From a bacterium (lineage in GTDB: Bacteria > Patescibacteriota > Minisyncoccia > Phycocordibacterales > Phycocordibacteraceae): a stretch of DNA of 64,000 bases. The translations under genes were made by a program, and so were the position numbers. Position 1 is the first letter of the stretch. Each line of letters starts with the position of its first letter. The notes under the pieces were generated by a model. That model was given only the letters and a program-made list of their open reading frames with translations. It had not been told where the DNA came from and made no database searches. The stretch is taken from NCBI GenBank assembly GCA_021849125.1, contig JAJZTG010000003.1, positions 2,133-66,132 of the forward strand, written 5' to 3'. Positions 12,753 to 63,162 of the stretch are shown here, in pieces.

Positions 12753-12797
12753 CCTCCATTTCCTCACCCTGGTTATCCAAGGTATAGTGCGCTTAAT

Positions 12798-17804: not shown

Positions 17805-17810
17805 TAACCT

Positions 17811-18437: not shown

Positions 18438-18454
18438 TGCTACGGATGCATGTG

Positions 18455-18463
18455 TGGTACACT
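18455..18463 (+). promoter_or_regulatory. extended -10 TGGTACACT
   Basis: Upstream of the FkbM gene, with a 43-nt leader. Confidence 0.35.
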
Positions 18464-18506
18464 TCGCTCACTACGAGCTGGCGCGCATTTTTGCATCAGG
18501 TAACCC

Positions 18507-19316
18507 ATGTCTATCCTTAAACGATTCGTCGAGAAGGTCAGAGAGAGCGTATTTCTCTCCTCAAAGCTTGGCGCGTCGCTCAGCACCAAGATCCTTTTAT
18601 TCATCCTTGTCTGGTGGTTTCCGTTACGCCGTGTTCTTAAGCTCCGAGCGCGAGCAACCGCGGTAAAGCTCAAGGCCCAAAGTGGGCAACAGTTCTTCTT
18701 TACGCTTAAGGACAGCACCGACGTAGCCGTACTTCGTGAAGTGTTTCTTGACGGGGAATATGTCGTGTCGCTCGAAGCTGAACCGAAGGTCATTTTCGAC
18801 ATAGGGAGCAACATAGGCGCTTCGGTCATCTATCTACATCTCAAATACCCATCCGCGAAAATTTACGCCTTCGAACCGAATCCGTATATCTTCGATCGTT
18901 TGCGTGAGAATACCCGTCAGTTCTCGGGAATCGAGATCTTCCCCTATGCCGTTTCTGATACGGACGGGACTATCGAATTTTTCGCATACCCCGACAGCCA
19001 TCTGTCCTCATCGGTGATACAAAGGACGGAAGGACAAAAGCCGATCTCAGTTCCTTCCCGTTCTCTCAGTTCACTCATGCGTGAATTATCGGTAGCGCAT
19101 GTTGATCTCATGAAATTTGATATAGAAGGGGGAGAGGGGCGCATGCTGCGCGACACAGAAGGGCTTAGTAAGATCGGTGCGCTCATCGGCGAGGTGCATT
19201 TCGATCTGATGGATGACACCAAAGAGTCGTTTGAGAAGCTTCTCTCGGGTTTTGACGCGACCTATCGGCCGATAAAACCGACTCGTGGTATCGTGACAGC
19301 ACGCAGCCTTTATTGA
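18507..19316 (+). CDS. FkbM family methyltransferase
   Basis: VIFDIGSNIGASVIYL, YAFEPNP and FDIEGGE are hallmarks of the FkbM fold. Confidence 0.7.
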   Translation: MSILKRFVEKVRESVFLSSKLGASLSTKILLFILVWWFPLRRVLKLRARATAVKLKAQSGQQFFFTLKDSTDVAVLREVFLDGEYVVSLEAEPKVIFDIGSNIGASVIYLHLKYPSAKIYAFEPNPYIFDRLRENTRQFSGIEIFPYAVSDTDGTIEFFAYPDSHLSSSVIQRTEGQKPISVPSRSLSSLMRELSVAHVDLMKFDIEGGEGRMLRDTEGLSKIGALIGEVHFDLMDDTKESFEKLLSGFDATYRPIKPTRGIVTARSLY

Positions 19317-23940: not shown

Positions 23941-23961
23941 GTGTGGTATAGTCTCTGCATC

Positions 23962-32622: not shown

Positions 32623-33420
32623 ATGGATGAAATAATTATTGAAGAAAAGAAATACGTATCGTCTAAGCAAGCTGCAAAGATAACCGGCTATGCGAAAGAT
32701 TATGTAGGGCAACTATGCCGAGAAGGTCGTGTACCGGCTCGTCTCGTCGGGCGTAGTTGGTATGTGCTCGAGTCGGCTATCCAGGATCATCGTTTCGGAG
32801 CGCCTGAGCTATCGGAAGAAGCTTCTAATGAGCCGATTCCGGTCTCGGTAGAGACCCAGGTCATCTCGACTCGCTATGAAGCGGTGGAAACGCCTGTATT
32901 GCCTTCTATAAACCGCTTGCGTGAGGATGTTCCGAGTATGCAGGACCAGGGTGAAGATTCGGAGGATTCAAAATCGCAAGATCTCCGTGATGCCTGGAGC
33001 AATTGGTTTAATGAGCTTCCGGTAGAGGAAAAGTCTGAGGCTGCTACTGAAGCTCCTGAGCCGATAGCGCCAGCAGAAGAAACCTCTCAGGCTATGATGG
33101 AAGAGCTTGAGGAGCCTGCAGCGCCAGTTCCAGAGGAAGAGTCTACTCAAGAGTCTGTATCTATACACATTCTTGATCGTACGTATCGTCCTACACTTGA
33201 GACGCTTGCTCCTCAGCAAGAAGAGTACCCAGCAGCGCCTGTGCGGAAGGATACACAGAAGGGTGCCCCTACTATAAGCCGCGCCGTCCGTGCTTCAGCG
33301 GTCATCATAGCGGTGATTACCGTAGTGCTTGCGGCATTCGGTACAGGTTACTTCGATACATATCTAACCTCGAATAGCCAAGCAGCATACTTAGGAGGAA
33401 TATCTATTTACAATAAATAG
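32623..33420 (+). CDS. membrane-anchored protein with N-terminal excisionase-type HTH (HTH_17) domain, acidic linker and C-terminal TM helix
   Basis: SSKQAAKITGYAKDYVGQLCREGRVPARLVGRSWYVLESAIQDHR matches the HTH_17 pattern. An E/P-rich linker follows. TM helix AVIIAVITVVLAAFGTGYF near the C-terminus. Confidence 0.6.
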   Translation: MDEIIIEEKKYVSSKQAAKITGYAKDYVGQLCREGRVPARLVGRSWYVLESAIQDHRFGAPELSEEASNEPIPVSVETQVISTRYEAVETPVLPSINRLREDVPSMQDQGEDSEDSKSQDLRDAWSNWFNELPVEEKSEAATEAPEPIAPAEETSQAMMEELEEPAAPVPEEESTQESVSIHILDRTYRPTLETLAPQQEEYPAAPVRKDTQKGAPTISRAVRASAVIIAVITVVLAAFGTGYFDTYLTSNSQAAYLGGISIYNK

Positions 33421-37000: not shown

Positions 37001-40000
37001 GGGTGACTACAATGCCTCAAGCATCCGCGGCGCGCTCACGGTCTACGGCAATACGACTTCCGGCTCAGCCAGCTCGCTTACGCTCCAGAGGGGAAGTACG
37101 AACGGTGACAACACGCTCGCCTTCAATGATCAGACCGGCTCGCCGCTCTTGAAGCTCTATACGAGCGCCAATACCGGCTACAGCTACCTCACTGGTTACC
37201 AGAGCTATCTTTCTCTCGGCACGAGTCTCGGTGGGCAGGTGTTGCGTATCGACACCTCGGGGAACATCACCACTACCGCGAACGTCATCCCATCGGCAAA
37301 CCAGACCTACAATCTCGGCTCACCGGCTGTTTACTGGAACAATGCGTACATAAACAACATCGTCGCGAACAACCTCTCCTCAGCCTCGACCTCGATCGCC
37401 GGCACGAACACGAGTTCTTTCAGCATCTATTCGAACAATCCGACCACTGACACTCAGGACATCTCGCTCATCTTCTATCGCGGCGCAGGCGCGTCTTCAA
37501 ACGGCGTCCTCGCATGGAACTCGACCTTGAAGCGTTTCGATCTCAATCAGAACCTTCACATCGTGAATGACTCGACCGCACCCGCTTCGACGACCCTCGT
37601 AGTCCAGGGCGTGTCGGGGCAGACGGGGCCGCTCACAAGCTGGCTCAACTCAGCTGGCGAATATCTCGCCACGCTCACCTCCAGTGGCTCCTTCGGCATC
37701 GGCACATCCTCGCCCTATGCGAGCCTCTCTATCGCAGGCTCGGCGGGAGGCACCTCAAGCCTCTTCGCCATCTCGACCTCGACCGCTGGATACGCGACCA
37801 CCACCGCGCTTTCGGTAGACCGAAACGGCAACCTATCGCTCCTAAACGGCGCGAGCCTTACGGTCTCCGGTACGACCAGTTTCTCTGGCTCATTTAGTCC
37901 GAATGTCGGCAGCAATGTTCTTCTCTCGACCAATGCCTCTGGCAACATCGTCGCGACTTCCTCACCGACGGCGGATTACTTCACCGCGACCAGCACAACC
38001 GCCTCGCAATTTCCCTATGCATCGACCACGGCGATTACAGCAAGCGGTACCGGATACTTCGGTTCTTTGGGCGGTGCAGCCTTCTCCTCGCTTACCACAA
38101 ACTACCTGCCGAAGTGGGGAAATGGTACGTTCTCGAATTCGCTCATCTTTGACAACGGCACCAACGTCGGCATCGGGACGACGAGCCCCTCCGCACTTCT
38201 TTCTATCCAAAACAACGTCTCTACCTCTTCGCCCGTTGTCTCGCTCTTTGATTCAACTGGTGCAACGTCGCTCGAGTTGCGTGCTTCGACCTCGACGCTC
38301 AACAATACCTTCATCGGAGTGAATGCTGGCGCCGTGAACACCACCGGTTCTGCTAATACTGTAATCGGGTACGGATCTTTTCCGGTGAATACCACGGGTT
38401 ATTCGAACGTCGCTGTCGGTTTTAATACGCTCTTTTCAAACACGACCGGATATTCGAATACCGCTCTTGGCATTAATGCGCTCTACACGAACACGTCCGG
38501 GTATGAGAACGTATCTGTCGGTCGTGCTTCTCTCTATTCAAATACAACCGGCACTTGGAACAGCGCCACAGGCTATCGAGCCCTCTACTCAAACACCACA
38601 GGGGTATCAAATACCGCAAATGGTTGGGGTGCTCTCAATAAAACCACGACGGGTTCCTATAACAGCGCCATTGGCGATTCCTCACTGTACTTCAATACGA
38701 CGGGCGCTAGTAACGTCGCTGTGGGCGCAGGCTCGCTCTACTACAATAACGCCGCCACTTCTTCCGTCGCAATCGGTCGTCAAGCCGGTCGCGGTACCGC
38801 CGCCTACGCGAACCAAGGCGGCGTGTACGTGGGCTACCGGTCAGGCTACAGCGCCGCCACCGGTTCAGATTTCAATACGTTTGTAGGCTACACAGCTGGC
38901 TACAACACCACCACAGGCACCTACAACATAGCGAATGGTGCCTATGCTCTCTATTCAAATACAACCGGCAACTTTAACAGTGCTCTTGGTGTGAGTGTCC
39001 TTTATGCCAACACCACCGGCTCGTACAACGTTGCAGACGGTTTTAACACACTTCGTTACAACACCACCGGCTCGTACAACGTTGCAGACGGTACAAACGC
39101 ACTCTTCTCGAACACTACTGGTGCCAACAACGTCGCTGAAGGAGCGAGTGCCCTTTACTACAACGCCTCCGCGACTTCTTCTGTCGCAGTAGGCTACGCC
39201 GCCGCTTCAGGCGCTGCCGCCTACGCGAACCAAGGCGGCGTGTACGTGGGCTACCAGTCAGGCTACAGCGCCGCCACGGGTTCAGATTTCAATACGTTTG
39301 TAGGCTACACAGCCGGATACAATACCACCACAGGCACCTACAACATAGCGAATGGTGCCTATGCTCTCTATTCAAATACAACCGGCAACTTTAACAGTGC
39401 TCTTGGTGTGAGTGTCCTTTATGCCAACACCACCGGCTCGTACAACGTTGCAGACGGTTTTAACACACTTCGTTACAACACCACCGGCTCGTACAACGTT
39501 GCAGACGGTACAAACGCACTCTTCTCGAACACTACTGGTGCCAACAACGTCGCTGAAGGAGCGAGTGCCCTTTACTACAACGCCTCCGCGACTTCTTCTG
39601 TCGCAGTAGGCTACGCCGCCGCTTCAGGCGCTGCCGCCTACGCGAACCAAGGTGGCACCTACCTCGGCTACCAGTCTGGCTATTCCGCAGCCACCGGTTC
39701 CGACTACAACACCCTTGTTGGCTACCAATCCGGCTATGGTATCACCACGGGCTCCAACAACATTTGGATCGGTGCTGCCACTTCTTCAACCGCCATTGCC
39801 AATCTCACTACCGGTTCGCAGAACATCCTTATCGGTAACAACATCTCTCTTCCCAGCGCCACCGCTTCAGGTCAGTTGAACATCGGCAACATCATCTTCG
39901 GTACGGGTATCACTGGAACCGGCTCAACCGTTTCAACGGGAAACATCGGGGTGGGGACGGCGGGGCCGGGGGCGAAGTTGCATATATACGACGGAGGTAC

Positions 40001-43000
40001 TGGAACATCCGACAGCGACCTCTTACGCCTTCAAACCACTTATGGCACCAATTCGGCGAAGAAATCCATCAGTTGGTATGACACGACAAATGTTACGGGA
40101 CAAATTGATACCCGATATGATGGAACCACCGTAGATATGGTTTTTGGCAGCTTGTATAACACCACCGATTTATATAATTCTACGGCCAGAATGGTGATTA
40201 AAGGAAACGGCAACGTCGGCATCGGGACGACCGCGCCCTCCGCGCCACTCACGATTCAAAACAACGTTGCGACCTCCTCGCCGATTCTCTCATTCCTTGA
40301 CTCGACCGGCGCGACCTCACTCGAGATCCGCGCGTCCACCTCGACGCTCCTCAACACCTTTATAGGTACGAGTGCGGGTGCGGCAAACACCACTGGCTAC
40401 TACAATACTGCTACCGGTTATGGTGCCCTCTACTCAAACACCACTGGTTACCAAAACGTCGCAAATGGTATCGCCGCTCTCTACGCAAACACGAGCGGCT
40501 ACCGTAACGTTGCCACCGGTGGGAACGCGCTTCGCTACAACACTACCGGTAATAACAACGTCGCAAGTGGCGACGCGGCGCTCTTCTCCAACATCACCGG
40601 TACTTCAAACGTCGCGCTCGGCAGCACCGCGCTCTACTACAACGCCTCCGCAACTTCGACGGTGGCAGTCGGTTTCAATGCCGCCGCCGGCACCGCCGCG
40701 TACTCCAACCAAGGCGGCGTGTACGTGGGTTACCAAGCCGGCTACAGCGCCCAGACCGGTTCCGACTACAACACGCTCGTTGGTTATAGTGCCGGCCACG
40801 ATGTAACGACCGGTACCGCAGAAGTGGCCCTTGGGGCAAATGCACTTCTTCACACCACTACCGGCAATCACAACGTTGCGATTGGTATTAGCGCTTTGCA
40901 ATCAAACACCACCGGGGGTGCGAATGTCGCGATCGGCAGCTCAGCTTTACAAAATGACGTATCAAGTGGCGGTAGTACCGCTGTCGGGTATCAAACGCTC
41001 AGTGCAAACACTACGGGTGCCAACAACGTCGGTCTCGGTTACTATGCACTCGTCAATAACAAGACGGGTTCCAACAACGTCGCATTGGGTGGGAATTCCC
41101 TCCAGTCGAACATCACCGGCTCTGAGAACACTGCTGTCGGTTTGGGGGCGCTTTACTACAACGCTTCCGCCACTTCTTCGGTCGCAATCGGGCGTGCTGC
41201 CGCCCAAGGCACAGCCGCCTACTCCAACCAAGGTGGTGTGTACGTGGGCTACCTGGCTGGCTACAGCGCCCAGACGGGTTCCGACTACAACACATTCGTG
41301 GGCTACACGGCAGGTTACAACACCACTACCGGCTATTGGAACGTTGGAAATGGTTATGAATCCCTGTACTCAAACACCACTGGTGATCAGAACATTGCCC
41401 TCGGTCCAAAAGCGCTCCGCTCCAACACCACAGGAAGGTTTAATTTCGCAGGAGGTGCGTACGCGCTTTATTCAAATACCACCGGTACTTCAAACGTCGC
41501 GATCGGCAATCAGGTCGCTTACTTCAACTCGTCCGCCACATCGACCGTCGCTATTGGCTATTACGCAGCTCAAGGCACCGCCGCATACTCAAACCAAGGT
41601 GGTGTGTACGTGGGCTACCTGGCTGGCTACAGCGCCCAGACCGGCTCGGACTACAACACGTTCGTGGGCTACCAGTCTGGCTATTCAGACACCGTTGGTT
41701 TTTACAATACAGCTTCTGGGTACACAGCGCTCTACTCAAACGCTGGGGGTTCTTATAATAATGCCTACGGTAGCGCTGCGCTCCAGAACACGACAGGATC
41801 TCAGAATACGGCAATTGGATCGGGCGCAGGTAGCGGCATCACAAGCGGTTCCAACAACATTGCTATCGGCTATAACGCCCAGGTGCCGACACCGACCGCT
41901 TCGAACCAGATTCGCCTCGGCGATGCGAATATCACTTACGCGGGTATCCAGGTGTCGTGGACGGTGACATCCGATCGCAAGTACAAGACCGACATCAAGC
42001 CGGTTGCTTTCGGCCTCGACTTCGTGAATCAGCTTCAGCCAGTCGACTACTTGCGCGTGAATGATGCAAGCGGCGGCAGGGAAGCCGGCTTCGTGGCGCA
42101 GGACGTGAATCAGACGCTCCTCTCTGCCACCTCGACCGCCTATGGGCTCATAAGCTACGACCCGACGGCCGCTGCTTACTCGCTCCGCTACAACGACTTC
42201 ATCCCGATCCTCACCCGCGCAGTGCAGCAGCTTGATACGAAGGTAAACCTTATCGCGAGCTCGACCGCGTCGACGACGCAGATCTTCGTCGACACCACGG
42301 GTAACGTCGGCATCGGCACCACCAGTCCGAATCATACTTTGACGATCGCGGGCGACGTGGGTGCGATCGCCTTCGTGAACACTTCGACGCGCACGGCAAA
42401 GACCGACATCAGCTATGTCGGCGAGTCGGCAAGCGACGAGATGTATGACCAGCTTCTCAAGATCAAGGTCGCGAACTACCGCTACAAGATCGAGCCCACG
42501 AGCGATCCGCTCCGCCTCGGCTTCATCGCGGAAGAGGTGCAGCAAGTAGCTCCTGAGATCCTCTCGCCCGATGGTAAGGGCGTCGACCTCTACAAGCTCG
42601 CGACCTTCACGCTCTCGGGCGTGCAGACCTTGGCCGGGAAGGTCGACGCGCAGGGCGTGCGGCTCGCCTCGCTTGAGGACCGCGTCGCCAAGCTCGAGAG
42701 CGGGGACGTCTCGGTGGCAAGCGGCTCGCCGGTGAGCTTCTCCTCAGCATCGCTTGCAAGCGCGCTTAGCGGGTTCGGCGTGCTTATCGACAAGGGCATC
42801 GCGCAGTTCAATACGCTCGTCTTCCGCACGCTCGTGGCAAGCTCGGATGCCGATGGGACCAGTAGCGCGGGCAGCGTGACGATCCTCACCGGCAATACCG
42901 TCGCCCAGGTGAATAATGCGCTCGTGAAGCCTTCGACCAAGATCTTCGTCACCTTCAACGCGCAGCTTACGGGCAGCTGGTGGGTGAGCGACAAAGCCGA

Positions 43001-43754
43001 CGGCTCCTTCCGCGTGGTGCTCTCCGACCCTCAGACGGGCGACGTCTCCTTCGACTACTTCCTCGTCCAGACGGAAGGCCAGATCGCGACCCCGACGGCA
43101 AGCGGCTATCAAGGCATCTCGCAATCGAGCGGGCCGGATACGGTCGCGCCGGTGATCACGCTCCTCGGCGATAACCCGGTGTACCTCTCGGTCGGTGGTA
43201 CTTTCACGGAGCCGGGGGTCACCGTGACCGATAACGCCGACGGCACGGATCCGTACAAGACCTACGTGAACGGTATCGAGCAGGCGGCGGACGCAGGGAC
43301 CATCGATACCTCGAGTCCGACGACTTACATCATCACCTACACCGCACGAGACGCGGCAGGAAATACGACCAGCGCGCACCGCTCGGTAATCGTCGGCAAT
43401 CCGGACGGTACGGTCTCGGCTGACAGCGGAAGTCCGACTTCCACAGACACGACCGCACCGGTCGTGACCCTGAACGGCTCTGCGGCGATGGAACTTGTCC
43501 AGAGCGGTACCTTCACCGACCCGGGCGCGACCGCCACTGACGATACCGATGGCGACCTCACTGCAAAGGTCGTGGAGACGGGCAGCGTGGATACTGCGAC
43601 GACAGGCCTCTACACGCTCACGTACTCGGCTACCGACGCGGCGGGGAACACGGGCAGCGTCTCGCGCGTCGTTTCGGTCGTCGCGCCGGCGGCGGCCACG
43701 ACGACCGAGACGACGGCCACTGGCGGCACGGCCTCCTCCACCCCGGCACAATAA
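34047..43754 (+). CDS. giant (3235 aa) membrane-anchored fibre/adhesin: N-terminal HTH_17 + TM, phage-tail-fibre-like NTTG 17-residue repeats, two Peptidase_S74 intramolecular-chaperone domains, two DUF5011 Ig-like domains
   Basis: One uninterrupted ORF. N-terminal TTKEASESSGYTSDYLARLVRSGEIEGRKIGHNWFVDRVSLEEFR (HTH_17). TM helix LVAFTAALAIVGGGAFVAQ at aa ~108-128. Repeats of xxNxAxGxxALYSNTTG. S74 motif TSDRKYKTDIKP...GFVAQDV (~41.9-42.25 kb). Second S74 STRTAKTDI...VANYRYK...LGFIAEEVQQVAPEI (~42.3-42.7 kb). DUF5011 motifs DTVAPVITLLGDNP and DTTAPVVTLNGSAAMEL...TDDTDGDLTAKV. Confidence 0.85.
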   Translation: MNSPLQNLVTTKEASESSGYTSDYLARLVRSGEIEGRKIGHNWFVDRVSLEEFRDKQRSRKLDRARELSDTRSREYHGNLQDAGAPARTVPKELIRKTALPAAEVSLAPVSFASHLVAFTAALAIVGGGAFVAQASVGIQAAGRVVAFAQEAADGFKIAFGDAPAQVAARFANVDTMMRTSADRVAMNAASAEAAYASLPLAQVTPATMRSFLVKGYETRQRAVFAQVPSYKTSTYDPIDWATFGHDTYAFVTSPSRIHDVLSNAYLSVGMSAYRGIESAFSAYEAFVNHAGQEMLVLGTATRDALVASPSKVSRAAVALGEAVQDLTHAAIRADVALAYGTAEAAPASARAVVAFLGSTGSTLANTTEQIPHAIADGYLAAAAWPATAGPQLASSVFGLEYQAAHRFVTFTDDLSSRYLAVVEGAGAFAYGATEHAKSAGSLLAVVPEWLTSDSLARTHIPQAVAAVVAAVPDLSAGQQAALTVYQTVSGFLGAAKHFIASLIPAPQNVAVQTPAPAVATTTERIITVPQNVTTYPTYTTVVRGASQEYVAQSISSLRAEVLATVANMIAPIAHQTATNITTIQQVNRIQDLSDLIVRNGDFRGGTFDNGRITNGISVSANTGTFTTLSGGSTSLATTTITGNLTLNGNQTISGSLTIGTTTITGPLSTSGTITGTYFVATSTTATSTLAGSLNIDSGGFVYATSTRNVGIGVLSPAALLAIQNSTSTQPIFTVKNAAGTEVYRITDSGFVGIGSTSPTYNLAVEGTSSLGNNAIAGYFTATSTTATSTFAGALAVGTTSPVAGALFTVGTSTPLLHISSNTGYIGIGTSSPAVALDLYATTAMRIPVGTTAQRPSGDVGYIRYNTTTHQFEGYGDNSVWQGLGGVINAAQTTYITAGTDDFLRFVTSSVERMTITAAGLVGIGSTSPTYNFSVEGTSSLGNNAIAGYFTATSTTASQFPYASTTALSAYNSLFAGSTATSTIAGDYNASSIRGALTVYGNTTSGSASSLTLQRGSTNGDNTLAFNDQTGSPLLKLYTSANTGYSYLTGYQSYLSLGTSLGGQVLRIDTSGNITTTANVIPSANQTYNLGSPAVYWNNAYINNIVANNLSSASTSIAGTNTSSFSIYSNNPTTDTQDISLIFYRGAGASSNGVLAWNSTLKRFDLNQNLHIVNDSTAPASTTLVVQGVSGQTGPLTSWLNSAGEYLATLTSSGSFGIGTSSPYASLSIAGSAGGTSSLFAISTSTAGYATTTALSVDRNGNLSLLNGASLTVSGTTSFSGSFSPNVGSNVLLSTNASGNIVATSSPTADYFTATSTTASQFPYASTTAITASGTGYFGSLGGAAFSSLTTNYLPKWGNGTFSNSLIFDNGTNVGIGTTSPSALLSIQNNVSTSSPVVSLFDSTGATSLELRASTSTLNNTFIGVNAGAVNTTGSANTVIGYGSFPVNTTGYSNVAVGFNTLFSNTTGYSNTALGINALYTNTSGYENVSVGRASLYSNTTGTWNSATGYRALYSNTTGVSNTANGWGALNKTTTGSYNSAIGDSSLYFNTTGASNVAVGAGSLYYNNAATSSVAIGRQAGRGTAAYANQGGVYVGYRSGYSAATGSDFNTFVGYTAGYNTTTGTYNIANGAYALYSNTTGNFNSALGVSVLYANTTGSYNVADGFNTLRYNTTGSYNVADGTNALFSNTTGANNVAEGASALYYNASATSSVAVGYAAASGAAAYANQGGVYVGYQSGYSAATGSDFNTFVGYTAGYNTTTGTYNIANGAYALYSNTTGNFNSALGVSVLYANTTGSYNVADGFNTLRYNTTGSYNVADGTNALFSNTTGANNVAEGASALYYNASATSSVAVGYAAASGAAAYANQGGTYLGYQSGYSAATGSDYNTLVGYQSGYGITTGSNNIWIGAATSSTAIANLTTGSQNILIGNNISLPSATASGQLNIGNIIFGTGITGTGSTVSTGNIGVGTAGPGAKLHIYDGGTGTSDSDLLRLQTTYGTNSAKKSISWYDTTNVTGQIDTRYDGTTVDMVFGSLYNTTDLYNSTARMVIKGNGNVGIGTTAPSAPLTIQNNVATSSPILSFLDSTGATSLEIRASTSTLLNTFIGTSAGAANTTGYYNTATGYGALYSNTTGYQNVANGIAALYANTSGYRNVATGGNALRYNTTGNNNVASGDAALFSNITGTSNVALGSTALYYNASATSTVAVGFNAAAGTAAYSNQGGVYVGYQAGYSAQTGSDYNTLVGYSAGHDVTTGTAEVALGANALLHTTTGNHNVAIGISALQSNTTGGANVAIGSSALQNDVSSGGSTAVGYQTLSANTTGANNVGLGYYALVNNKTGSNNVALGGNSLQSNITGSENTAVGLGALYYNASATSSVAIGRAAAQGTAAYSNQGGVYVGYLAGYSAQTGSDYNTFVGYTAGYNTTTGYWNVGNGYESLYSNTTGDQNIALGPKALRSNTTGRFNFAGGAYALYSNTTGTSNVAIGNQVAYFNSSATSTVAIGYYAAQGTAAYSNQGGVYVGYLAGYSAQTGSDYNTFVGYQSGYSDTVGFYNTASGYTALYSNAGGSYNNAYGSAALQNTTGSQNTAIGSGAGSGITSGSNNIAIGYNAQVPTPTASNQIRLGDANITYAGIQVSWTVTSDRKYKTDIKPVAFGLDFVNQLQPVDYLRVNDASGGREAGFVAQDVNQTLLSATSTAYGLISYDPTAAAYSLRYNDFIPILTRAVQQLDTKVNLIASSTASTTQIFVDTTGNVGIGTTSPNHTLTIAGDVGAIAFVNTSTRTAKTDISYVGESASDEMYDQLLKIKVANYRYKIEPTSDPLRLGFIAEEVQQVAPEILSPDGKGVDLYKLATFTLSGVQTLAGKVDAQGVRLASLEDRVAKLESGDVSVASGSPVSFSSASLASALSGFGVLIDKGIAQFNTLVFRTLVASSDADGTSSAGSVTILTGNTVAQVNNALVKPSTKIFVTFNAQLTGSWWVSDKADGSFRVVLSDPQTGDVSFDYFLVQTEGQIATPTASGYQGISQSSGPDTVAPVITLLGDNPVYLSVGGTFTEPGVTVTDNADGTDPYKTYVNGIEQAADAGTIDTSSPTTYIITYTARDAAGNTTSAHRSVIVGNPDGTVSADSGSPTSTDTTAPVVTLNGSAAMELVQSGTFTDPGATATDDTDGDLTAKVVETGSVDTATTGLYTLTYSATDAAGNTGSVSRVVSVVAPAAATTTETTATGGTASSTPAQ
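38811..39644 (+). repeat. near-identical 417-bp tandem duplication (2 copies, ~98.8% identity) inside the giant gene
   Basis: Units 38811..39227 and 39228..39644 differ at 5 positions. One of these is a CGG/CAG Arg/Gln change. A diverged third copy begins at 39645. Each unit encodes 139 aa ending ...AAYANQGGVYVGYQSGYSAATGSDFNTFVGY. Confidence 0.9.
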
Positions 43755-44618: not shown

Positions 44619-45372
44619 TTACCAAGGTCGGACCTTGGTAATTAACGGTCAGGACATGTCTTTCGCGTAATCGCGTGCATCCGCGAGCATCGTGTCGAAA
44701 GAGGGTCTCTCTTCAACAAGTTCTAGTATCGAGTCAGTATCAGTGACACCTCTAAAATCCGAACGGTCGCTTATATAATCATTAAGGCTTGAGAAAGGGT
44801 ATTCTTGCAATTTCATGCGGAGCATCTTCTCATCAGAGACAAGACCTTCTTTCCACTTCGGTTCGTATAATTCCGCAGGATTCGCGTGGATATAGTTCAC
44901 GACTCTGCGTAGATATGAGTCATCCGCAACATGCTTCGCTTTGAATTTTCCGGAAAAGAGCGCCCCGGTACGATCGTACTTTTTATTGAAATACATCGTA
45001 TAGCCAGTACCCAGCTTGCGCATGAATGCCGTGATACCGCCCTCAATACGCTCGCGGATAAGAAGATGGTAGTGGTTAGGCATGAGCGCGTAGGCACCGA
45101 GATCAACAAAGGCATCGTTACGCTCCAGTCCAATAACTTTCTCCAAGGTCGGACCTTGGTTAAGTTGTTCGCGGAATGTGCTTAGGTGGAGAGGGGAGCT
45201 GCTGTTTGAGACGTAGAGAAGCATTTGGAATCGTTCGTAATCGCGGCGGTCCATGAAGATCGTGCGCTTATCGACACCGCGGCTGTAGCAGTGGAACCAT
45301 TCGTCCGGGGCAAAGGCGATTGCGCGCTCCATGTGCATAGTTTACCAAGTTACCAAGGTCCGACCTTGGTTT
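44619..45372 (-). mobile_element. RAYT (REP-associated tyrosine transposase, IS200/Y1 HUH family) unit with flanking REP palindromes
   Basis: Transposase CDS 44649..45338 (minus strand). HUH motif NHYHLL and catalytic-Tyr region NYIHANPAE. Perfect palindrome TTACCAAGGTCGGACCTTGGTAA at 44619..44641. Related copies ACCAAGGTCCGACCTTGGT at 45349..45372 and CCAAGGTCGGACCTTGG at 45143..45159, the latter inside the CDS. Confidence 0.7.
44649..45338 (-). CDS. REP-associated tyrosine transposase (IS200-like TnpA, Y1 HUH)
   Basis: 229 aa. FMDRRDYERFQMLL ... AYALMPNHYHLLIRE ... YLRRVVNYIHANPAE. Confidence 0.75.
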   Translation of the reverse strand: MHMERAIAFAPDEWFHCYSRGVDKRTIFMDRRDYERFQMLLYVSNSSSPLHLSTFREQLNQGPTLEKVIGLERNDAFVDLGAYALMPNHYHLLIRERIEGGITAFMRKLGTGYTMYFNKKYDRTGALFSGKFKAKHVADDSYLRRVVNYIHANPAELYEPKWKEGLVSDEKMLRMKLQEYPFSSLNDYISDRSDFRGVTDTDSILELVEERPSFDTMLADARDYAKDMS

Positions 45373-55510: not shown

Positions 55511-56632
55511 ATGAAATCCCTCCGGCTCCAGGCAACAAAACTCTCTCTAGGATTCCTCGTGCTTGCAGGTGCGTTTGTGGGTTTTGCCGGTGTCGCGGAT
55601 GCAGCGACGACGACCTGTACGAATCAATGCGTTGGCGGGTATGAGACGCAGTCGTACTCTTGCGTAACCGATTCCGGTACGGCTTGTTCCAGTACAAGCT
55701 TCTATTGGGGTGGCGGTTGCGGGTATGGGGCGGGGACGTACGGTCCTGGTTGCTATCCATATACCTGCTACGGTACCTGCACCCAGCAGGTCTGGAACAG
55801 CTGCCTCTCGACGACGCAGGTGTGTACGACCACCTATGCTTCTTGTTCTGGCTCGGGGACCCTGAGCTGGGGAGCGGGATGTTCTGCCACAGGCTCTTAT
55901 TCCGCGCCTAACGGCGGTTCAGCAACCGCGGATAATTCAGCCTCAGGATATACAGGCTCAATAACCTATTCTTGTTCGGATGGCGCTTGGGTCGGACCCA
56001 CGAGTTCTTCCTGTACCTCTTGCACCTCAACCGGTACTTTTGATTGCGCTCCAGTTGCCGGAACGTACGGAGTTCCAGTCGGTGCGACCGGTACAGGCAC
56101 CTATTCGTACAATAGCTGTACCGGAGCGATTACGTACACGGGAGGCTGCACTGTGCCGGTGAAAGCCCCGACGTCCGCGTCGGTATCGGCTTCGCCGAAT
56201 CCCGCCTATCTTACGGGTACGGTAGGCATATCGTGGAGCGGCAATAATGCTCCGACGAGCTACAACGTGACAGTGGGCGGTACAACCTACCCGGTCGGTG
56301 CGCTCACTTCCTGGTCGGGACTCGTGACCGATCTTATCTCTACGATAGGTACCTATCCGCTTGGCGTTCAGGCTTGCAATACGGCAGGATGTGCAAGCGG
56401 TTCCGGCTCGCTTACGGTAAGCGGTCCGAAGATCAACACCTTCTCTGCAAGTACCGCGACGCTTCCGAAGGGTGGGGGTACCGTGACTCTTACCTGGGAT
56501 AGTGCGGGTGCGAAGACCTGCACGGCATCAAATGCGCTCGGTTCCGGTAACTGGTCCGGTCCGGTTTCGATCTCGGGTACCATGACCGTCTCGACGACTG
56601 ATACCAATACTTACTATTTGACGTGCAACTAA
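55511..56632 (+). CDS. secreted Cys/Gly/Thr-rich protein with Ig-like Trp-Cys domains
   Basis: Signal peptide ending ADA. About 30 Cys in the N-terminal half. C-terminal domains with the ISWSGNN...TGT and LTWDSAGAKTCTAS...TYYLTCN pattern. Confidence 0.55.
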   Translation: MKSLRLQATKLSLGFLVLAGAFVGFAGVADAATTTCTNQCVGGYETQSYSCVTDSGTACSSTSFYWGGGCGYGAGTYGPGCYPYTCYGTCTQQVWNSCLSTTQVCTTTYASCSGSGTLSWGAGCSATGSYSAPNGGSATADNSASGYTGSITYSCSDGAWVGPTSSSCTSCTSTGTFDCAPVAGTYGVPVGATGTGTYSYNSCTGAITYTGGCTVPVKAPTSASVSASPNPAYLTGTVGISWSGNNAPTSYNVTVGGTTYPVGALTSWSGLVTDLISTIGTYPLGVQACNTAGCASGSGSLTVSGPKINTFSASTATLPKGGGTVTLTWDSAGAKTCTASNALGSGNWSGPVSISGTMTVSTTDTNTYYLTCN

Positions 56633-57876
56633 ACAAACAAACATTCGTAAGCGTCGCAACGACAATACTTGCTGCCGGGGCATTTCTTGTGCCGCTTTCT
56701 GCAGGCGCACAACCTGCTGTACAACCTTTAGCAAGTGTTACGAACCTCCACATCATCGCGCAAGACTCACAGACACTCCAAATAGCTCTTGATGTTTCTG
56801 TGGGGGAAGGATCTACGCAGCAAGATCTTCAAGTCGGTCTCAAAGCCTTCGTGCAAGGCTCAAAGACCGCCGATACCGCTCTCGTTGAATCGACGGTCGA
56901 TGACTCGCTGTTCACTGTGTCGGCAAATAAGATTGTCCACCGGGATATCGCCTATGCTATCAGCGATCTTCCAGATGGGGATTACTATGTGCTTCCAGTC
57001 GTATATCGAAATGGCAACATAATCGCCGTTGGCAAACAGGTTCCTTTTACTGTTACCGGTTCGGAAAAGTCATTACTTATACTGCGCGATACCTGCATGC
57101 TCTTCACGAAGGATGGGTATGCGCACAGCCTGGGAGAAAATGTCCCGGTAGAAGCAGGGCAACCGCCACTGCTATCCTGTTCTGTCCGCAACATGTCTAA
57201 ATTGGCCGTCAGCGCTTTCCCTGTATTTTGGGCGCAGGAAGCTACATTTAACGGGAGGAATCTTGCGGTGGTCCAGCAAGACCTTCAGTACGTAAACTGG
57301 AATCCCGGAGAACAGAAAGCAGTACTTCTCAATACCCCACCGATAGGAGAATCGAAGCAATACGACACGTATGCCCTAACCGTGCATTTTTCCGGCCAGA
57401 AGGGAACTTCGGTTTCAGGGCCGATCCGTCTTTTGTATGGGATTAAAGGTGGGGAAGTCTCTGTCGCGCAGGCAGTTTTTGACAAGTCATCGTACATGAA
57501 AGGCGATACGATACGGGTGTCTGGAAATGTGCACGTAGATGGAGAAACGCCGCCAGAAGGAACATTTGCGGTTACTGCAGTTGTGCATAGTGCCGGAGAG
57601 ATCTGTGCTTCCTCGTCGTCTACCCCTCTTAAAGTAAGCAGACTATCCTCTCGGTTCAGCCTAACAGTTACAGCACAATCTGATTGTCAGAATCCCGAAG
57701 GTGCCGTGCTCATTACAGGGAACGGAAGAGTAACCGCGAGCGCGCCGATCAGTCTGACTGCGGGGTGGAGGAGTGACAGTTCGTTCACGGGTCGTATCTT
57801 GCTTGCGGCGGGGGTTGTCGCCGTTCTACTCCTCGTAGTATTTCGAAAGCGTATGATAATCAAGGAAAAAATATGA
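56623..57876 (+). CDS. secreted protein with C-terminal TM anchor (paralog of 58907 gene)
   Basis: Signal peptide ...LVPLSAGAQPA. C-terminal TM helix LLAAGVVAVLLLVVF then a basic tail. Shares DKSSYMKGDTIRVSGNV with the EKSRYERGDTAYVSLLW segment of the paralog. Confidence 0.55.
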   Translation: MQLNKQTFVSVATTILAAGAFLVPLSAGAQPAVQPLASVTNLHIIAQDSQTLQIALDVSVGEGSTQQDLQVGLKAFVQGSKTADTALVESTVDDSLFTVSANKIVHRDIAYAISDLPDGDYYVLPVVYRNGNIIAVGKQVPFTVTGSEKSLLILRDTCMLFTKDGYAHSLGENVPVEAGQPPLLSCSVRNMSKLAVSAFPVFWAQEATFNGRNLAVVQQDLQYVNWNPGEQKAVLLNTPPIGESKQYDTYALTVHFSGQKGTSVSGPIRLLYGIKGGEVSVAQAVFDKSSYMKGDTIRVSGNVHVDGETPPEGTFAVTAVVHSAGEICASSSSTPLKVSRLSSRFSLTVTAQSDCQNPEGAVLITGNGRVTASAPISLTAGWRSDSSFTGRILLAAGVVAVLLLVVFRKRMIIKEKI

Positions 57877-58838
57877 AAACAACCCTTCAAACAGGACTCG
57901 CTCTCGTTCTTCTAGGAGTGTTCCTGGTATCAGCTCCTGCGGCGTATGCGGTTGCACCAGCGGCTACGCTTACGGGCCCAGATATTACCAGCCCTATTGC
58001 ACCTGGGACTCCGATCATCCTACTTGGTCAATGCACGAATACGACGAGTGCTTACCTTAGTAACTATGGAAGCCTTACGCTTACTTCCGGAGGAGGATTC
58101 AGCGCAGGTGTCGTCCCGCAGATTACGACGACTTACACGCTTACCTGTACCGGATCGGATGGGACAGCAACGGCAAGTTTTACAGTGCCGGTCGCAAGTT
58201 CTACATCCCAGCCGACCGCCGCAATGACTGTTCCGAGCGCACCGATTGATGCAAGTAATAGCGCGGTCTCCATATCTTGGCAGTGCACGAACTCGACAGC
58301 AGCTTTCATTACGAATGTCGGGGCAGTCTCTCTCTCGGGCCAACAGACTGTTGCGATAACTCCTCCTCAGACATTCACGCTCACCTGCACGGGTTCGGGG
58401 GGGACTGCCACGGCAAGCGGGACAGTGTACCCATGGCCGACGAGTTCCTCGGGAGTGACGAATCCGTCTATCGCGTTTGACGTGTCGCCCTCGACCATAA
58501 GTCCTGGGCAAAGTATTTCGGTCACGTGGGCCTGCTCCAATGCAACGAGCGCTTTGGTGAATGGTTCGGGGCTCGGTAGCGGCTGGACAAGTCTGAACGG
58601 GTCCACGACTGTACAACCGACAGTTTCGGTCGGAGATGTCCTTTTCTACCATGCTGGCTGCTACGCAACGAATCCGCAGACAGGAGGGACACTTTCGGCG
58701 CTTGATAATCGGTATGTGTACGTTGTCGCTCCCACGGTAACACCTCCGCCGAGTACACCAGGGTCGGTCACCTCCTCGATCACCGTCACGGTCTCGAAGC
58801 AGAAGCCCGGCATCAACCTCTACTTCACCTCGCCATAG
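57873..58838 (+). CDS. secreted Ig-like repeat protein ending in conserved tail TVTVSKQKPGINLYFTSP
   Basis: Signal peptide ...APAAYA. Repeated ISWQCTN.T...TFTLTCTGSGGTATASGTV domains. C-terminal 18 aa identical to those of the 60172 gene. Confidence 0.6.
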   Translation: MKTTLQTGLALVLLGVFLVSAPAAYAVAPAATLTGPDITSPIAPGTPIILLGQCTNTTSAYLSNYGSLTLTSGGGFSAGVVPQITTTYTLTCTGSDGTATASFTVPVASSTSQPTAAMTVPSAPIDASNSAVSISWQCTNSTAAFITNVGAVSLSGQQTVAITPPQTFTLTCTGSGGTATASGTVYPWPTSSSGVTNPSIAFDVSPSTISPGQSISVTWACSNATSALVNGSGLGSGWTSLNGSTTVQPTVSVGDVLFYHAGCYATNPQTGGTLSALDNRYVYVVAPTVTPPPSTPGSVTSSITVTVSKQKPGINLYFTSP

Positions 58839-58906
58839 GGAACAATTCGCGCTTTTGTTGATAATCGTTTCGGGAGTTTTTTAAAATCGGAGTATACTTC
58901 AGGTAT

Positions 58907-60175
58907 ATGAAATCCCGGCTCCTCATAACTTTCATTCTCGCCCTCTTACCGCTTTCGGCAGGGGCGCAGACGGCACAAGTCATCGCGGACGTTTCGCTGC
59001 AAGACTGTTCGTACACGCAAACGGGCGGACAGTTCGGCGTAAGCTGCTCGATAACCAACCGCTTTAAGGATCAGGGCGATATTCGCTATGCGGTTGAGCT
59101 CTTGAAGCGTACGGCGAGTTCGACAGTCGAAGTGGCGGACATGAAGGTTTATGATCCCGTCCTCTCACTCCGAGCTGAAGAAACCGTTTCCATCAAAGCA
59201 GACTACACGGCACCCGCATTCTTCTCGGGGAAGTATGAGCTCTGGATCGTCTCGAAGACCTCAGACGGTCTTGGGCTTTCTTCGCAGCAGCTCGGTACTG
59301 TTTCGCTCAAAGCGACCGATGTTTCGTATCTGGAAGTGAAGGACTGTGTTTTGTATGTCGCAGGAGAACCGGCTGCAAAGACGTATGTGCTTGGTCAGGG
59401 CGTAGATATAAATCCGGACGAGATTCTTGAGGGTTCTTGCACGGTTACTGCGCATACGACACAGGATATGTCTGTAACGCCTTCCTTTGCCACGCATGCG
59501 CAGAGCGTTTTCGGTACAGTGGTGCCTGAAGCGAGCGGTGCGCAGCCGGCAATTTCTTTCAAGAGAGGGGAGACAAAGACGTACGCGTTTACGGTTCCGA
59601 AATCCGTGACGCCGCAGGCGTACGATGCTCTGCTTACTTTCAGAGCAGGCGATGCAGCGCTCTCAAGCCCGATCGATATCCGTTATATCGTGCGCGGTCC
59701 GAGCGCGGTCATTCAGAGTGTTCTTCTCGAAAAGAGCCGCTACGAACGGGGAGACACCGCCTACGTCTCACTTTTGTGGAGCGGCTCGACGATTCTCGGC
59801 GGTGGGGTGCGCAAAGGGCCGCTCGCCGACACGGTTGCAAAGGTCGCTCTGTCGCTGAGCGACGAAAACGGTACAGCGTGCGCGGATGACACGACCTTCA
59901 CCATCGCAGCGAACGCGCCGGAACGTCACCAACTCACCGCCTATCCACTCAAGGTGAACCGTTTCTGTCTGAGTCCTCGTGTGACCGTAAAGTTCCTCGA
60001 CGCCTCAGGAGCAACACTTACGGAAAAGACGATCGCATTCGAGGGCGAACGTCTTGCCGGCGATGCGTTCCGCGTATTCCTTAGTGCCTACGGATGGTAC
60101 ATCGTCGCTGGCCTCATCGTCATCCTTGCGCTTGTCGGGGGTATACTTAAGAATCGTAAGTCCATAGCGGTATGA
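58907..60175 (+). CDS. secreted protein with C-terminal TM anchor (paralog of 56623 gene)
   Basis: Signal peptide ...LLPLSAGAQTA. C-terminal TM helix WYIVAGLIVILALVGGIL then KNRK. -10 TATACT at 58893. Confidence 0.55.
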   Translation: MKSRLLITFILALLPLSAGAQTAQVIADVSLQDCSYTQTGGQFGVSCSITNRFKDQGDIRYAVELLKRTASSTVEVADMKVYDPVLSLRAEETVSIKADYTAPAFFSGKYELWIVSKTSDGLGLSSQQLGTVSLKATDVSYLEVKDCVLYVAGEPAAKTYVLGQGVDINPDEILEGSCTVTAHTTQDMSVTPSFATHAQSVFGTVVPEASGAQPAISFKRGETKTYAFTVPKSVTPQAYDALLTFRAGDAALSSPIDIRYIVRGPSAVIQSVLLEKSRYERGDTAYVSLLWSGSTILGGGVRKGPLADTVAKVALSLSDENGTACADDTTFTIAANAPERHQLTAYPLKVNRFCLSPRVTVKFLDASGATLTEKTIAFEGERLAGDAFRVFLSAYGWYIVAGLIVILALVGGILKNRKSIAV

Positions 60176-60975
60176 AATCAAAACTCTCTCTCCTCGTCGG
60201 GTTTCTAGTCTTCGTTTCGGCGGCTCCGCTAGCTCACGCAACAACTTTTTCGGTCCCGTATACGTACCAACTTGATTATCTGGGTACTGGAGTTCTGCAA
60301 ACGTACAATACGAGTTTCGTGTTCGAAGCAAGTCTCGATAAGCAGGTGTATACACCTGGTGAGCGTATCTGGACACGCACCAACGTGATTAGTACGGGGA
60401 GCCCAAAAACGGGACAGAATTGGACTCAGAATATTCCGCCCTATGTGTTCCAAGATCGGTGTGGTGATCTAAGTCAGTCAACATCTGTTGTTTATGATTC
60501 AGGGTATCCGCCATTTATCGCAGGAGTAAAGGCAACCAATGTCTCGATGATATACCCTCTGTGCTCTCAAGTACTTACGCTCGACCATGTCATGGGTGCT
60601 AGTTGGGAAGGATATTATCCGAGTCTGTGGTTGTATGCTGAATCGTACGCAACGACCAATAGTATCAAGCTTTTTGCTGGTCTTGGTCCAAGCTCTATTT
60701 CCATGACGGAAGTAGGTAGTCTTCCATACTGCGTTTCCACCACTGGTTCATGTCCAGGTAGTACCCAAGGATGCGCCACGACCAAGGGCCAGGCATGCAC
60801 CTCGGCTCCAAACGCCTGTGGGGAAAGTACGACCGGCACTATCGCTTGCGACGGCTCCTGTAGTGCCATAACACCTGCAAACACGTGTCCGAATCCTGGA
60901 GGAGTCACGTCTTCTGTTACGGTCACCGTCTCGAAGCAGAAGCCGGGTATCAATCTCTATTTCACTTCGCCGTAG
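60172..60975 (+). CDS. secreted protein ending in conserved tail TVTVSKQKPGINLYFTSP
   Basis: Signal peptide ...APLAHA. Cys-rich C-terminal part. The final 18 aa are identical to those of the 57873 gene. The nucleotide sequences are only ~80% identical, so the protein sequence is under selection. Confidence 0.6.
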   Translation: MKSKLSLLVGFLVFVSAAPLAHATTFSVPYTYQLDYLGTGVLQTYNTSFVFEASLDKQVYTPGERIWTRTNVISTGSPKTGQNWTQNIPPYVFQDRCGDLSQSTSVVYDSGYPPFIAGVKATNVSMIYPLCSQVLTLDHVMGASWEGYYPSLWLYAESYATTNSIKLFAGLGPSSISMTEVGSLPYCVSTTGSCPGSTQGCATTKGQACTSAPNACGESTTGTIACDGSCSAITPANTCPNPGGVTSSVTVTVSKQKPGINLYFTSP

Positions 60976-60998
60976 GTTTCCACAAGACAGGGAAGAGA

Positions 60999-61040
60999 AA
61001 CGAAAAGAACAAGGTCAGACCTTGTTCTTTTCGTTTTTGT
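60999..61040 (+). terminator. rho-independent terminator (19-bp perfect stem)
   Basis: AAACGAAAAGAACAAGGTC-A-GACCTTGTTCTTTTCGTTT followed by TTG. The stem core AAGGTCAGACCTT resembles the REP core. Confidence 0.75.
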
Positions 61041-61064
61041 GGAAGTCCGACTTTCACATCTGAA
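61041..61064. repeat. REP-like imperfect palindrome GGAAGTCCGACTTTCACATCTG
   Basis: Shares 20 bp (AAGTCCGACTTTCACATCTG) with the palindrome at 8364..8398. Confidence 0.55.
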
Positions 61065-62217: not shown

Positions 62218-62304
62218 GCTAGCGTCTGCGGTCGTACAGAGCCTATCAACACTACGGTGTTCGATAGGCTCTTTTCTTTTACGCTTGGGTATATACTTGA
62301 ATAC

Positions 62305-63162
62305 ATGAATCTACGCACTATTTCCTTGAGCGTGCTCGCCCTGCTTTTTGTCGCTGGGATGTTTTCATACCACACGGATTCAGTTTCAGCAGGAGTATCG
62401 GTCACTGTGCCGCAAGGGAGTCCAGTGACGCTCCACTGGGTAATGACTGGCGGCGTAACTAGCTGTCAGGGCGATACCGACTACACCGATGCATCTATTG
62501 CGAATACATGGGTGTCTACTATCCATCGTGATGCCGATGTCCCATTTTCATTTACAGCAAATGAGGGGACCGGCACTTACCATTTTTCTTGTACAGACCC
62601 AATTACCGGAGGCACGAATGACGCGACAACACTCACCATCGTCGCGCCGTGTGGAGCAGGGACAGTCTGGAATGGTGCAACGTGCGTGCCTTCGGCACCG
62701 GCAGCCGGAACGCCTGGGGGAACACCATCAGCGGCGTGTACGCTCCCGTGGGGTGGCGTTATACAGAGCGGCGAGTCGGTTACGGCGTACCAGACCTCTT
62801 CGGTCGCTTCGCCAGCAACTTGCCAAGTACCCACAGCAGAGACGCGCACCTGTTTGAGCGGTGTCTTAAGCGGCAGCTATCAGTACCAGACCTGTACGGT
62901 GCAGGGTGGCCCTGCAACGGCATCCATAAGCGCTAGTCCGACCCGCGTCCGCTCTGGCGCCTCCTCGACCATCACCTGGAACGCCTCCGGCGTGACGAGC
63001 TGTACGGTCTCGGGACCGGGCCTCTCGGCAAGCACGAAAACCGGTTCGCAGCCAGTCACCATCACCCAGCAGTCGCTCTACACCCTCACGTGCCAGACGA
63101 GCGGCAACCCGGTCACCCAGACCGCGATCGTGAACGTCGTCCCGGGCTTCCAAGAATTCTAG
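62305..63162 (+). CDS. secreted Ig-like repeat protein (same Trp-Cys domain family as 55511/57873)
   Basis: Signal peptide MNLRTISLSVLALLFVAGMFSYHTDSVSA. Domains VTLHWVMTGGVTSCQGD...TYHFSCTD and ITWNASGVTSCTVSG...SLYTLTCQTSG. -10 TATACT at 62292. Confidence 0.55.
   Translation: MNLRTISLSVLALLFVAGMFSYHTDSVSAGVSVTVPQGSPVTLHWVMTGGVTSCQGDTDYTDASIANTWVSTIHRDADVPFSFTANEGTGTYHFSCTDPITGGTNDATTLTIVAPCGAGTVWNGATCVPSAPAAGTPGGTPSAACTLPWGGVIQSGESVTAYQTSSVASPATCQVPTAETRTCLSGVLSGSYQYQTCTVQGGPATASISASPTRVRSGASSTITWNASGVTSCTVSGPGLSASTKTGSQPVTITQQSLYTLTCQTSGNPVTQTAIVNVVPGFQEF

Follow-up and report, generated by a model that had tools for sequence, protein, structure and literature searches.

A lineage-restricted C-terminal tail shared by two unrelated secreted proteins of a Kaiserbacteria population, a candidate docking module

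Described C-terminal signals and the tail locus

LPXTG-type signals are composed of an LPXTG-like pentapeptide, a hydrophobic transmembrane (TM) segment and a positively charged end. The PEP-CTERM, GlyGly-CTERM and PGF-CTERM signals, which belong to exosortase, rhombosortase and archaeosortase systems, comprise a signature motif, a TM helix and an Arg/Lys cluster and are covered by NCBIfam models. The C-terminal domain of the type IX secretion system (T9SS CTD) is a β-sandwich of ~70-100 amino acids (aa; TIGR04183/TIGR04131) used by diderm bacteria with a Por secretion system, and dockerins are ~60-70 aa long with duplicated Ca-binding EF-hand-like modules (Pfam Dockerin_1) and have the Pfam Cohesin domain as their partner. 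Bacteria of the Candidate Phyla Radiation (CPR, Patescibacteria) live attached to host cells, and to our knowledge almost nothing has been described of how their orphan surface proteins, most of which lack recognisable anchors, are retained at the envelope. Literature searches on CPR C-terminal sorting motifs and on the sample accession returned no papers. The DNA analysed here is a stretch of 64,000 nucleotides (nt) from contig JAJZTG010000003.1, referred to as the window, in which two otherwise unrelated secreted proteins, A and B, end in almost the same C-terminal peptide, the tail. The tail appears to be a lineage-restricted case of a C-terminal interaction module shared by surface proteins. 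Both open reading frames (ORFs) were verified, and their parts are arranged as follows.

57873..58838, forward strand: tail protein A, 321 aa; signal peptide, three tandem Cys-containing immunoglobulin (Ig)-like repeats, the linker TVTPPPSTPG and the tail
58758..58835, forward strand: tail copy A, PGSVTSSITVTVSKQKPGINLYFTSP, then the TAG stop codon at 58836-58838
60172..60975, forward strand: tail protein B, 267 aa; signal peptide, N-domain (residues 24-182), Cys-rich module (183-243), the linker PNPGG and the tail
60718..60894, forward strand: Cys-rich constant module of B, SLPYCVSTTGSC...TGTIACDGSCSAITPANTC, related to the CPR repeat SAPNxCGxxNxGTIxCDGSCSA
60895..60972, forward strand: tail copy B, PGGVTSSVTVTVSKQKPGINLYFTSP, then the TAG stop codon at 60973-60975

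Protein A ends in ...PPPSTPGSVTSSITVTVSKQKPGINLYFTSP and protein B in ...CPNPGGVTSSVTVTVSKQKPGINLYFTSP, each directly before the stop codon. Their common C-terminus reads PG(S/G)VTSS(I/V)TVTVSKQKPGINLYFTSP-stop and spans 26 aa, or 23 aa without the PG(S/G) end of the linker. A preliminary description of this DNA reported an identical tail of 18 aa encoded by DNA of ~80% identity; the tail is real, but the shared stretch is longer, with 24 of 26 aa identical (E=1e-6 in BLASTP of the pair), and the DNA is 77% identical (60 of 78 nt). Outside the tail BLASTP detects no significant similarity between A and B, the next best segment being the signal peptide (E=0.33). Fifteen codons differ between the two copies, of which 13 are synonymous and two are conservative replacements (S/G and I/V). 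By the Nei-Gojobori method the proportion of synonymous differences (pS) is 0.70 and the synonymous distance (dS) is ~2, which is saturated, against a nonsynonymous distance (dN) of 0.055. Since the synonymous sites are saturated and the amino acids nearly invariant, it is confirmed that purifying selection acts on the tail peptide and not on the DNA, as had been claimed at the outset, and recent gene conversion between the two copies of this genome is excluded. No third copy is encoded in any of the six frames of the window or of the 6.5 kb past its end.

Read from its sequence, the tail would consist of a strand VTSS(I/V)TVTV, a turn SKQKPG and a second strand INLYFTSP. Along each strand there is a strict alternation between hydrophobic residues (V, I, V, V in the first; I, L, F in the second) and hydroxyl or polar ones (T, S, T, T in the first; N, Y, T in the second). 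The AlphaFold2 (AF2) monomer model of B, which is of low confidence (predicted local distance difference test, pLDDT, 46), places a hairpin at the tail (E246-252 / E259-265), and a hairpin is the conformation that we infer for it.

Neither A nor B has a membrane anchor of its own, though both have a signal peptide, with cleavage predicted between ...AYA and VAP in A and between ...AHA and TTF in B. The term secreted thus refers to N-terminal hydrophobic regions and AYA/AHA cleavage motifs in the translations. Each tail gene directly follows a gene for a membrane-anchored protein.

56623..57876, forward strand: anchor gene 1, 417 aa, GTG start; signal peptide, all-β ectodomain and C-terminal TM helix with a basic end (...ILLAAGVVAVLLLVVFRKRMIIKEKI)
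58907..60175, forward strand: anchor gene 2, 422 aa; signal peptide, three β-sandwich domains predicted to have seven strands each, and a TM helix at 398-414 followed by basic residues

The TGA stop codon of anchor gene 1 lies on the ATG of A and that of anchor gene 2 on the ATG of B, in both cases as a 4-nt ATGA overlap, a coupling that the preliminary description had missed. The 417-aa and 422-aa anchors are full-length paralogues (23% identity, E=1e-9) whose ectodomains carry conserved Cys pairs. Since each tail gene overlaps a paralogous anchor gene, the locus is a duplicated two-gene cassette composed of a membrane-anchored β-sandwich protein and a secreted protein with the tail. The AF2 model of the 422-aa anchor (mean pLDDT 55.6, indicative only) shows three 7-stranded β-sandwiches and the TM helix at 398-414, and a Foldseek search with this model returned only generic matches to tandem FN3, macroglobulin and RbmA-type β-sandwiches. 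Neither A, B nor the anchors have a Pfam (E<=0.1), NCBIfam (E<=0.1 for A and B), PHROG or PDB sequence match. A phage origin of the cassette finds no support in PHROGs, and the only PDB sequence match to the tail is an artefact caused by a TEV-site tag (ENLYF).

The two genes had initially been placed in a run of secreted Ig-like proteins. Sec-type signals are indeed present in both and the Ig-like assignment holds for the three repeats of A (47% identity between repeats 1 and 2, E=3e-12, in an internal repeat comparison), but B is a different protein. Elsewhere in the CPR, relatives of the Cys-rich module of B precede an Ig domain whose C-terminus is of the P.(F/Y).E. type, and in no case the tail. 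The Cys-rich repeat itself, SAPNxCGxxNxGTIxCDGSCSAxxP, is common to B, to a 373-aa protein upstream of the cassette (55511-56632) and to many CPR secreted proteins (P0018-P0025), and some database relatives bear Pfam PF25788 and PKD_4.

The tail differs from the LPXTG, PEP-CTERM, GlyGly-CTERM and T9SS CTD signals, as first proposed, in that every defining feature tested is missing. Both proteins stop at ...FTSP, and for this reason neither a hydrophobic segment nor a basic cluster follows the motif; the absence of a TM helix and of a basic cluster from the tail had been correctly described. With regard to LPXTG signals, the ends ...KPGINLYFTSP-stop contain no LPXTG-like motif and no residues after the tail, and with regard to the PEP-CTERM, GlyGly-CTERM and PGF-CTERM group there is no TM helix, basic cluster or NCBIfam match at E<=0.1. 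A T9SS CTD is not recognised in 23-26 aa that match neither NCBIfam nor Pfam, in an organism that is placed among the Kaiserbacteria/Paceibacterota CPR. Dockerin and cohesin domains are likewise without a Pfam match in A, B or the anchors (E<=0.1), and the tail has no Asp/Asn-rich loop. A hidden TM segment reached by read-through of the TAG codon was considered and rejected, as the downstream frames of the two genes are unrelated and non-hydrophobic. A reading of the tail as a truncated Ig domain or an orphan last strand of one was likewise rejected, since the tail scores 3.4 bits against a hidden Markov model (HMM) of the local Ig domains, a score equalled by 85 of 5000 shuffles. As to a dedicated enzyme, no sortase domain is found among the window ORFs scanned with Pfam, and no exosortase, rhombosortase, protease, transpeptidase or PDZ protein in the cassette or among the same ORFs; the co-occurring protease or transpeptidase envisaged in the preliminary description was thus not found among them. 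Cna_B or pilin-type Pfam matches are absent from A, B and the anchors.

Distribution and strain variation of the tail

A two-sequence profile of the tail was used in an exhaustive HMMER scan of 1.84 billion representative proteins with listing at E<=0.001, a threshold at which tails below roughly 60% identity could escape. The genuine matches are only P0005, which is the orthologue of A in the strain-variant locus L070, and P0010 and P0011, two 247-aa variants of the B family. Six further matches (P0012-P0017) are artefacts: they are either repeat proteins with many copies or translations of repeat arrays, and they align to short stretches of the profile only. All genuine matches trace to one assembly (ERZ27237442) or to its run (SRR14663242). 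Back-translated KQKPGINLYFT is absent from GTDB species genomes and JGI metagenomes, back-translated KPGINLYFT from IMG/VR, and the relaxed pattern QKPGINL[YF]FTSP from JGI metagenomes and IMG/VR. A word-index protein search with a 43-aa tail query gave no candidate though A and B are in the database; this is a limitation of the index, which is unsuited to tracing short C-terminal modules, and the result is not used as evidence. As far as sequence searches reach, the tail is a new sequence family, without homologues outside one narrow, uncultivated Kaiserbacteria (CPR) population in one metagenome. A docking or assembly tag is plausible, whereas a general sorting tag, which had also been suggested, is not, as among the 1.84 billion proteins only the A and B families of the one population carry the tail, with two substrates per genome. 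It had further been anticipated that the tail might be confined to two genes that are duplicates of each other; it is indeed limited to the A and B families, but A and B are not duplicates along their length.

The coupling to anchor genes extends to all five tail-carrying contigs or loci (the window pairs of A and of B, L070, L072 and L073/L074), in which the tail gene always overlaps an anchor-family gene by ATGA. The genes of P0005, P0010 and P0011 each lie directly after a gene of the 422-aa anchor type with the same 4-nt overlap. Differences among the five tail alleles are limited to I/V, V/I, K/N and Y/F and, at the linker edge, to S/G or an inserted Q.

The 462-aa gene upstream has 69 relatives in GTDB species genomes, nearly all of them labelled as Kaiserbacteria, Paceibacterota or Patescibacteria, and the closest are 84-86% identical. 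None of the 69 syntenic loci around these relatives contains the tail, and only one, L050 of a distant relative, contains an anchor homologue (32% identity), which overlaps a downstream secreted protein that ends in ...VNVITNYNIF. This overlapping pair of anchor and partner without the tail indicates that the arrangement of an anchor with a secreted partner predates the tail.

The strain variant L070 is 86% identical to the window at the DNA level, and its A orthologue is 93.5% identical in amino acids with an identical tail, the changes falling mostly in the signal peptide. The anchors evolve faster than mature A between these two strains, with 82% and 77% aa identity and a ratio of dN to dS (omega) of 0.19-0.26. 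Among the B proteins two regions are nearly constant, the signal peptide and the Cys-rich module with the tail (82-96% identity; dS 0.11-0.17 between the window and L072), whereas the N-domain between them (residues 24-182, window 60241-60717; alleles of the window, L072 and L073) is only 62% identical, with a saturated pS of 0.83. A saturated N-domain between flanks of such low divergence suggests allelic replacement, in which the variable head of B would be swapped by recombination between the conserved flanks of co-existing strains. A variable head between constant flanks is typical of exposed surface proteins. In the B variant of L073, moreover, the second half of the tail is written in synonymous codons like those of A.

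Possible roles of the tail

It is tentatively proposed that the tail is a small lineage-specific docking or interaction module that keeps A and B at the cell surface by non-covalent binding, with the co-translated anchor as the probable point of attachment. A ~23-residue amphipathic β-hairpin, carried on a proline-rich linker at the C-terminus of two unrelated Sec-secreted proteins, would dock non-covalently by β-sheet or hydrophobic-face packing and would so retain the otherwise anchorless A and B at the surface. The most probable receptor would be the three-domain membrane-anchored β-sandwich protein that is encoded immediately upstream and translationally coupled, which would amount to a miniature version of the cohesin-dockerin logic. 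The near invariance of the tail at saturated synonymous sites implies that every residue is constrained, as expected for a tiny binding unit, and the ATGA overlap in all five tail-carrying cases suggests that anchor and tail gene are co-expressed 1:1. The alternating residue pattern would give the hairpin one greasy face that needs a partner surface, and this surface is probably supplied in trans because the bodies of A and B are unrelated and their linkers flexible. The distal head of B varies and the proximal end by which it would be attached is constant, a polarity that agrees with surface display. Docking is the best-supported reading on account of the anchorless A and B, the coupling of their genes to anchors, the polarity of B and the greater age of the arrangement relative to the tail. 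The three possible roles named in the preliminary description were docking, a donor strand and a processing site; the coupling to anchors, of which that description took no account, makes docking the most specific guess.

The closest functional analogy is the display of proteins by cohesins and dockerins, and the closest structural analogy the foldon of T4 fibritin. As in display on cellulosome scaffoldins, unrelated secreted proteins have one C-terminal module in common, which follows a linker rich in Pro and Thr; the putative receptor is attached to the cell and composed of tandem β-sandwich modules, and binding would be non-covalent. However, the tail has 23 aa and no acidic loop, and there is one cargo gene per anchor gene as opposed to many cargos per scaffoldin. 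The foldon is a C-terminal unit of ~25 residues built around one β-hairpin with aromatic residues, and as in the tail nearly every residue is constrained, but the two share no sequence similarity and A and B are not coiled-coil fibres. Sortase and exosortase signals, like the tail, form the very end of surface proteins secreted by Sec, follow a linker and recur on unrelated proteins; they differ in their signature motif, TM helix and basic cluster, and the tail has no enzyme among the window ORFs scanned and only two substrates. In chaperone-usher pili and the type V pili of Bacteroidia, which use C-terminal donor strands, a terminal β-strand element comparable to the tail could pair with an Ig-like or β-sandwich partner. 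The cassette differs from these systems in having no chaperone, usher, processing protease or sign of polymerisation, and its partner is membrane-anchored with folds that appear complete in the model.

Several points weigh against docking on the anchor. The partner protein of L050 has no tail, and no surface patch common to the two anchor families is conserved to an extent that approaches the tail. Identical tails on anchors that have diverged to 23% identity point instead to a common third partner or to contacts between tails. The evidence from co-occurrence is thin, as the five contigs represent two orthologous loci in closely related strains. Both AF2 models are of low confidence (pLDDT 46 and 56), and in the anchor model the 7-stranded sandwiches are complete, none of them obviously short of a strand. 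The alternative of contacts between tails would take the form of a foldon-like C-terminal hairpin that assembles A and B into homo- or hetero-oligomers, such as trimers or a common β-sheet bundle, and does not bind the anchor. Such self-association would directly explain identical tails on otherwise diverged and unrelated proteins, and a second tail could supply the partner surface that the amphipathic pattern needs. The size of the tail (23-26 aa, compared with the 27 residues of the T4 fibritin foldon), its position at the extreme C-terminus, the predicted hairpin and the aromatic second strand also resemble the foldon. Self-association is nevertheless considered unlikely, since the tail has no sequence similarity to the foldon or to entries of Pfam or PDB, the globular or repeat architecture of A and B is not obviously fibrous, and the strict coupling to anchor genes is left unexplained. 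An enzyme encoded elsewhere in the genome might alternatively cleave the tail, ligate it covalently to the wall or to a protein, or modify it. One invariant active site would constrain both tails identically, and, as with known sorting signals, a linker precedes the tail and nothing follows it. One possible form of this proposal is O-glycosylation of the Ser/Thr-rich linker and tail by a Wzy_C-family protein (23941-26133), as a protein with Wzy_C and TPR domains and a large glycosyltransferase cluster are encoded in the same window. A sorting or processing signal is nonetheless improbable given that the window ORFs scanned include no sortase, exosortase, rhombosortase, protease or PDZ protein, that only two substrate families in one lineage are concerned, that the tail has neither a TM segment nor a basic cluster, and that the anchors have non-enzymatic β-sandwich folds.

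The tail strands might also complete or extend the β-sandwich of the anchor as a donor strand or by split-domain complementation, perhaps locked by an isopeptide or ester bond in the manner of SpyTag. The partner is predicted to be built of β-sandwiches, and K, Q, K, N and T are invariant in the tail, amino acids of the sort that form isopeptide and ester cross-links within proteins. There is a faint resemblance between the first tail strand and the strand that closes the Ig repeats of A (GSVTSSITVTVS and DGTATASFTVPV; E=12, not significant), but against the local Ig-domain profile the tail stands at chance, the domains of the anchor model, itself of low confidence, are complete, Cna_B and pilin-type Pfam matches are absent, and no conserved catalytic-type residues are common to both anchor families at one site. 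Strand complementation is therefore very improbable. That the tail has no separate function, and is a relic of a common ancestral C-terminus or a likeness kept up by occasional gene conversion, is more improbable still. Its tiny distribution over two loci in one population would agree with such a relic, and the A-like synonymous codons of L073 could reflect an old conversion tract or simply codon preference. The synonymous sites of the two copies are, however, saturated at 92% aa identity while linkers and bodies are unrelated, and five alleles that differ only by I/V, V/I, K/N and Y/F are unlike neutral relics.

The locus offers a compact and testable case with an extremely constrained 23-residue peptide, two unrelated cargos, two membrane-anchored partners and one strain-swapped head. 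Docking, if true, would define a new minimal attachment module that would help to annotate CPR surface proteomes and could potentially serve as a protein-engineering tag; if it is not true, the tail would be a lineage-private curiosity. A bolder version is a minimal natural plug-and-socket display, in which the hairpin tag would insert into or extend the β-sandwich of the anchored scaffold, possibly with a covalent lock, and variable adhesin heads would be exchanged on a constant attachment peptide. There is only a slim chance that this version is correct. If it is, the tail would rank among the shortest dockerin-like or SpyTag-like modules in nature and would give access to the way in which ultra-small episymbionts construct their host-contact surface. 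The general importance of the tail is limited by its narrow distribution in one population and one metagenome.

A second C-terminal motif and other features of the window

Two regulatory features accompany the cassette.

58858..58887, forward strand: sigma-70-like promoter match, TTGATA-18-TAAAAT (10/12), within the 68 nt that separate gene A from anchor gene 2
60978..61044, forward strand: intrinsic terminator, a long perfect hairpin with a T-run that closes the cassette (dG -32.5 kcal/mol, z = -6.4)

On the strength of the promoter-like match the second gene pair may be a transcription unit of its own; the match is one of consensus only, with 3 matches in the region against 5.5 expected by chance. 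None of 200 shuffles folds as well as the terminator hairpin, which is also present downstream of the B variant in L072.

A second C-terminal motif, ...VNV(V/I)xP.(F/Y)QEF-COOH, ends an Ig-like domain of ~85 aa in secreted proteins of Kaiserbacteria and other CPR. In its wider form, ...(V/I)N(V/I)xxP.(F/Y)(Q/x)E(F/x)-COOH, it is exactly C-terminal, and in the window it is represented by the protein encoded at 62257-63162, which ends in ...AIVNVVPGFQEF directly before the stop codon. The motif is found in 19-21 proteins of the 69 loci (L006, L012, L019, L020, L029, L030, L033, L035, L040, L043, L046, L052, L055, L056, L060 and L062), as well as in CPR proteins from other sources and lineages (P0019 and P0023-P0025 among them). 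Like the tail it is conserved at the exact C-terminus of secreted proteins of the same clade, and in relatives a B-type Cys-rich module precedes the Ig domain that bears it. Unlike the tail it is widespread and ends a full Ig domain of ~85 aa, and the tail shows no significant similarity to it. It was considered whether the arrangement of an anchor with a partner is general for proteins of the FQEF type, and this was rejected as no anchor-family gene precedes their genes. The second motif could be a real general C-terminal signal of the clade, and we know of no published description of it. An ORF of 65 aa located ~435-550 nt past the 3' end of the window (L071 8674-8871) repeats the last 38 aa of the 301-aa protein (...ITQQSLYTLTCQTSGNPVTQTAIVNVVPGFQEF; window 63049-63162) with 95.6% nt identity and is a recent partial duplication of the end of the C-terminal domain.

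The remainder of the window encodes Mur ligases, a glycosyltransferase cluster, the protein with Wzy_C and TPR domains, SecA and genes of central metabolism. The Wzy_C protein (O-antigen-ligase/PglL-like; 23941-26133) lies next to a long cluster of GT4 glycosyltransferases, methyltransferases and a polysaccharide deacetylase (8299-19316). This region is possibly a protein O-glycosylation machinery, which could plausibly act on the linkers of A and B, rich as they are in Ser, Thr and Pro. A 3235-aa ORF (34047-43754, forward strand) has an N-terminal HTH_17-like match, two Peptidase_S74 matches (endosialidase intramolecular chaperone) near residue 2642 and bacterial surface Ig-like domains at its C-terminus, and the preceding 265-aa ORF (32623-33420) also begins with HTH_17. 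An IS200-like Y1 transposase is encoded on the reverse strand at 44649-45338, and on the forward strand at 5207-7087 there is a homologue of VirD4/TraG-type coupling proteins, which is followed by a PKD-domain protein. The transposase and the VirD4/TraG homologue are remnants of mobile elements or of a system resembling type IV secretion in a small CPR genome.

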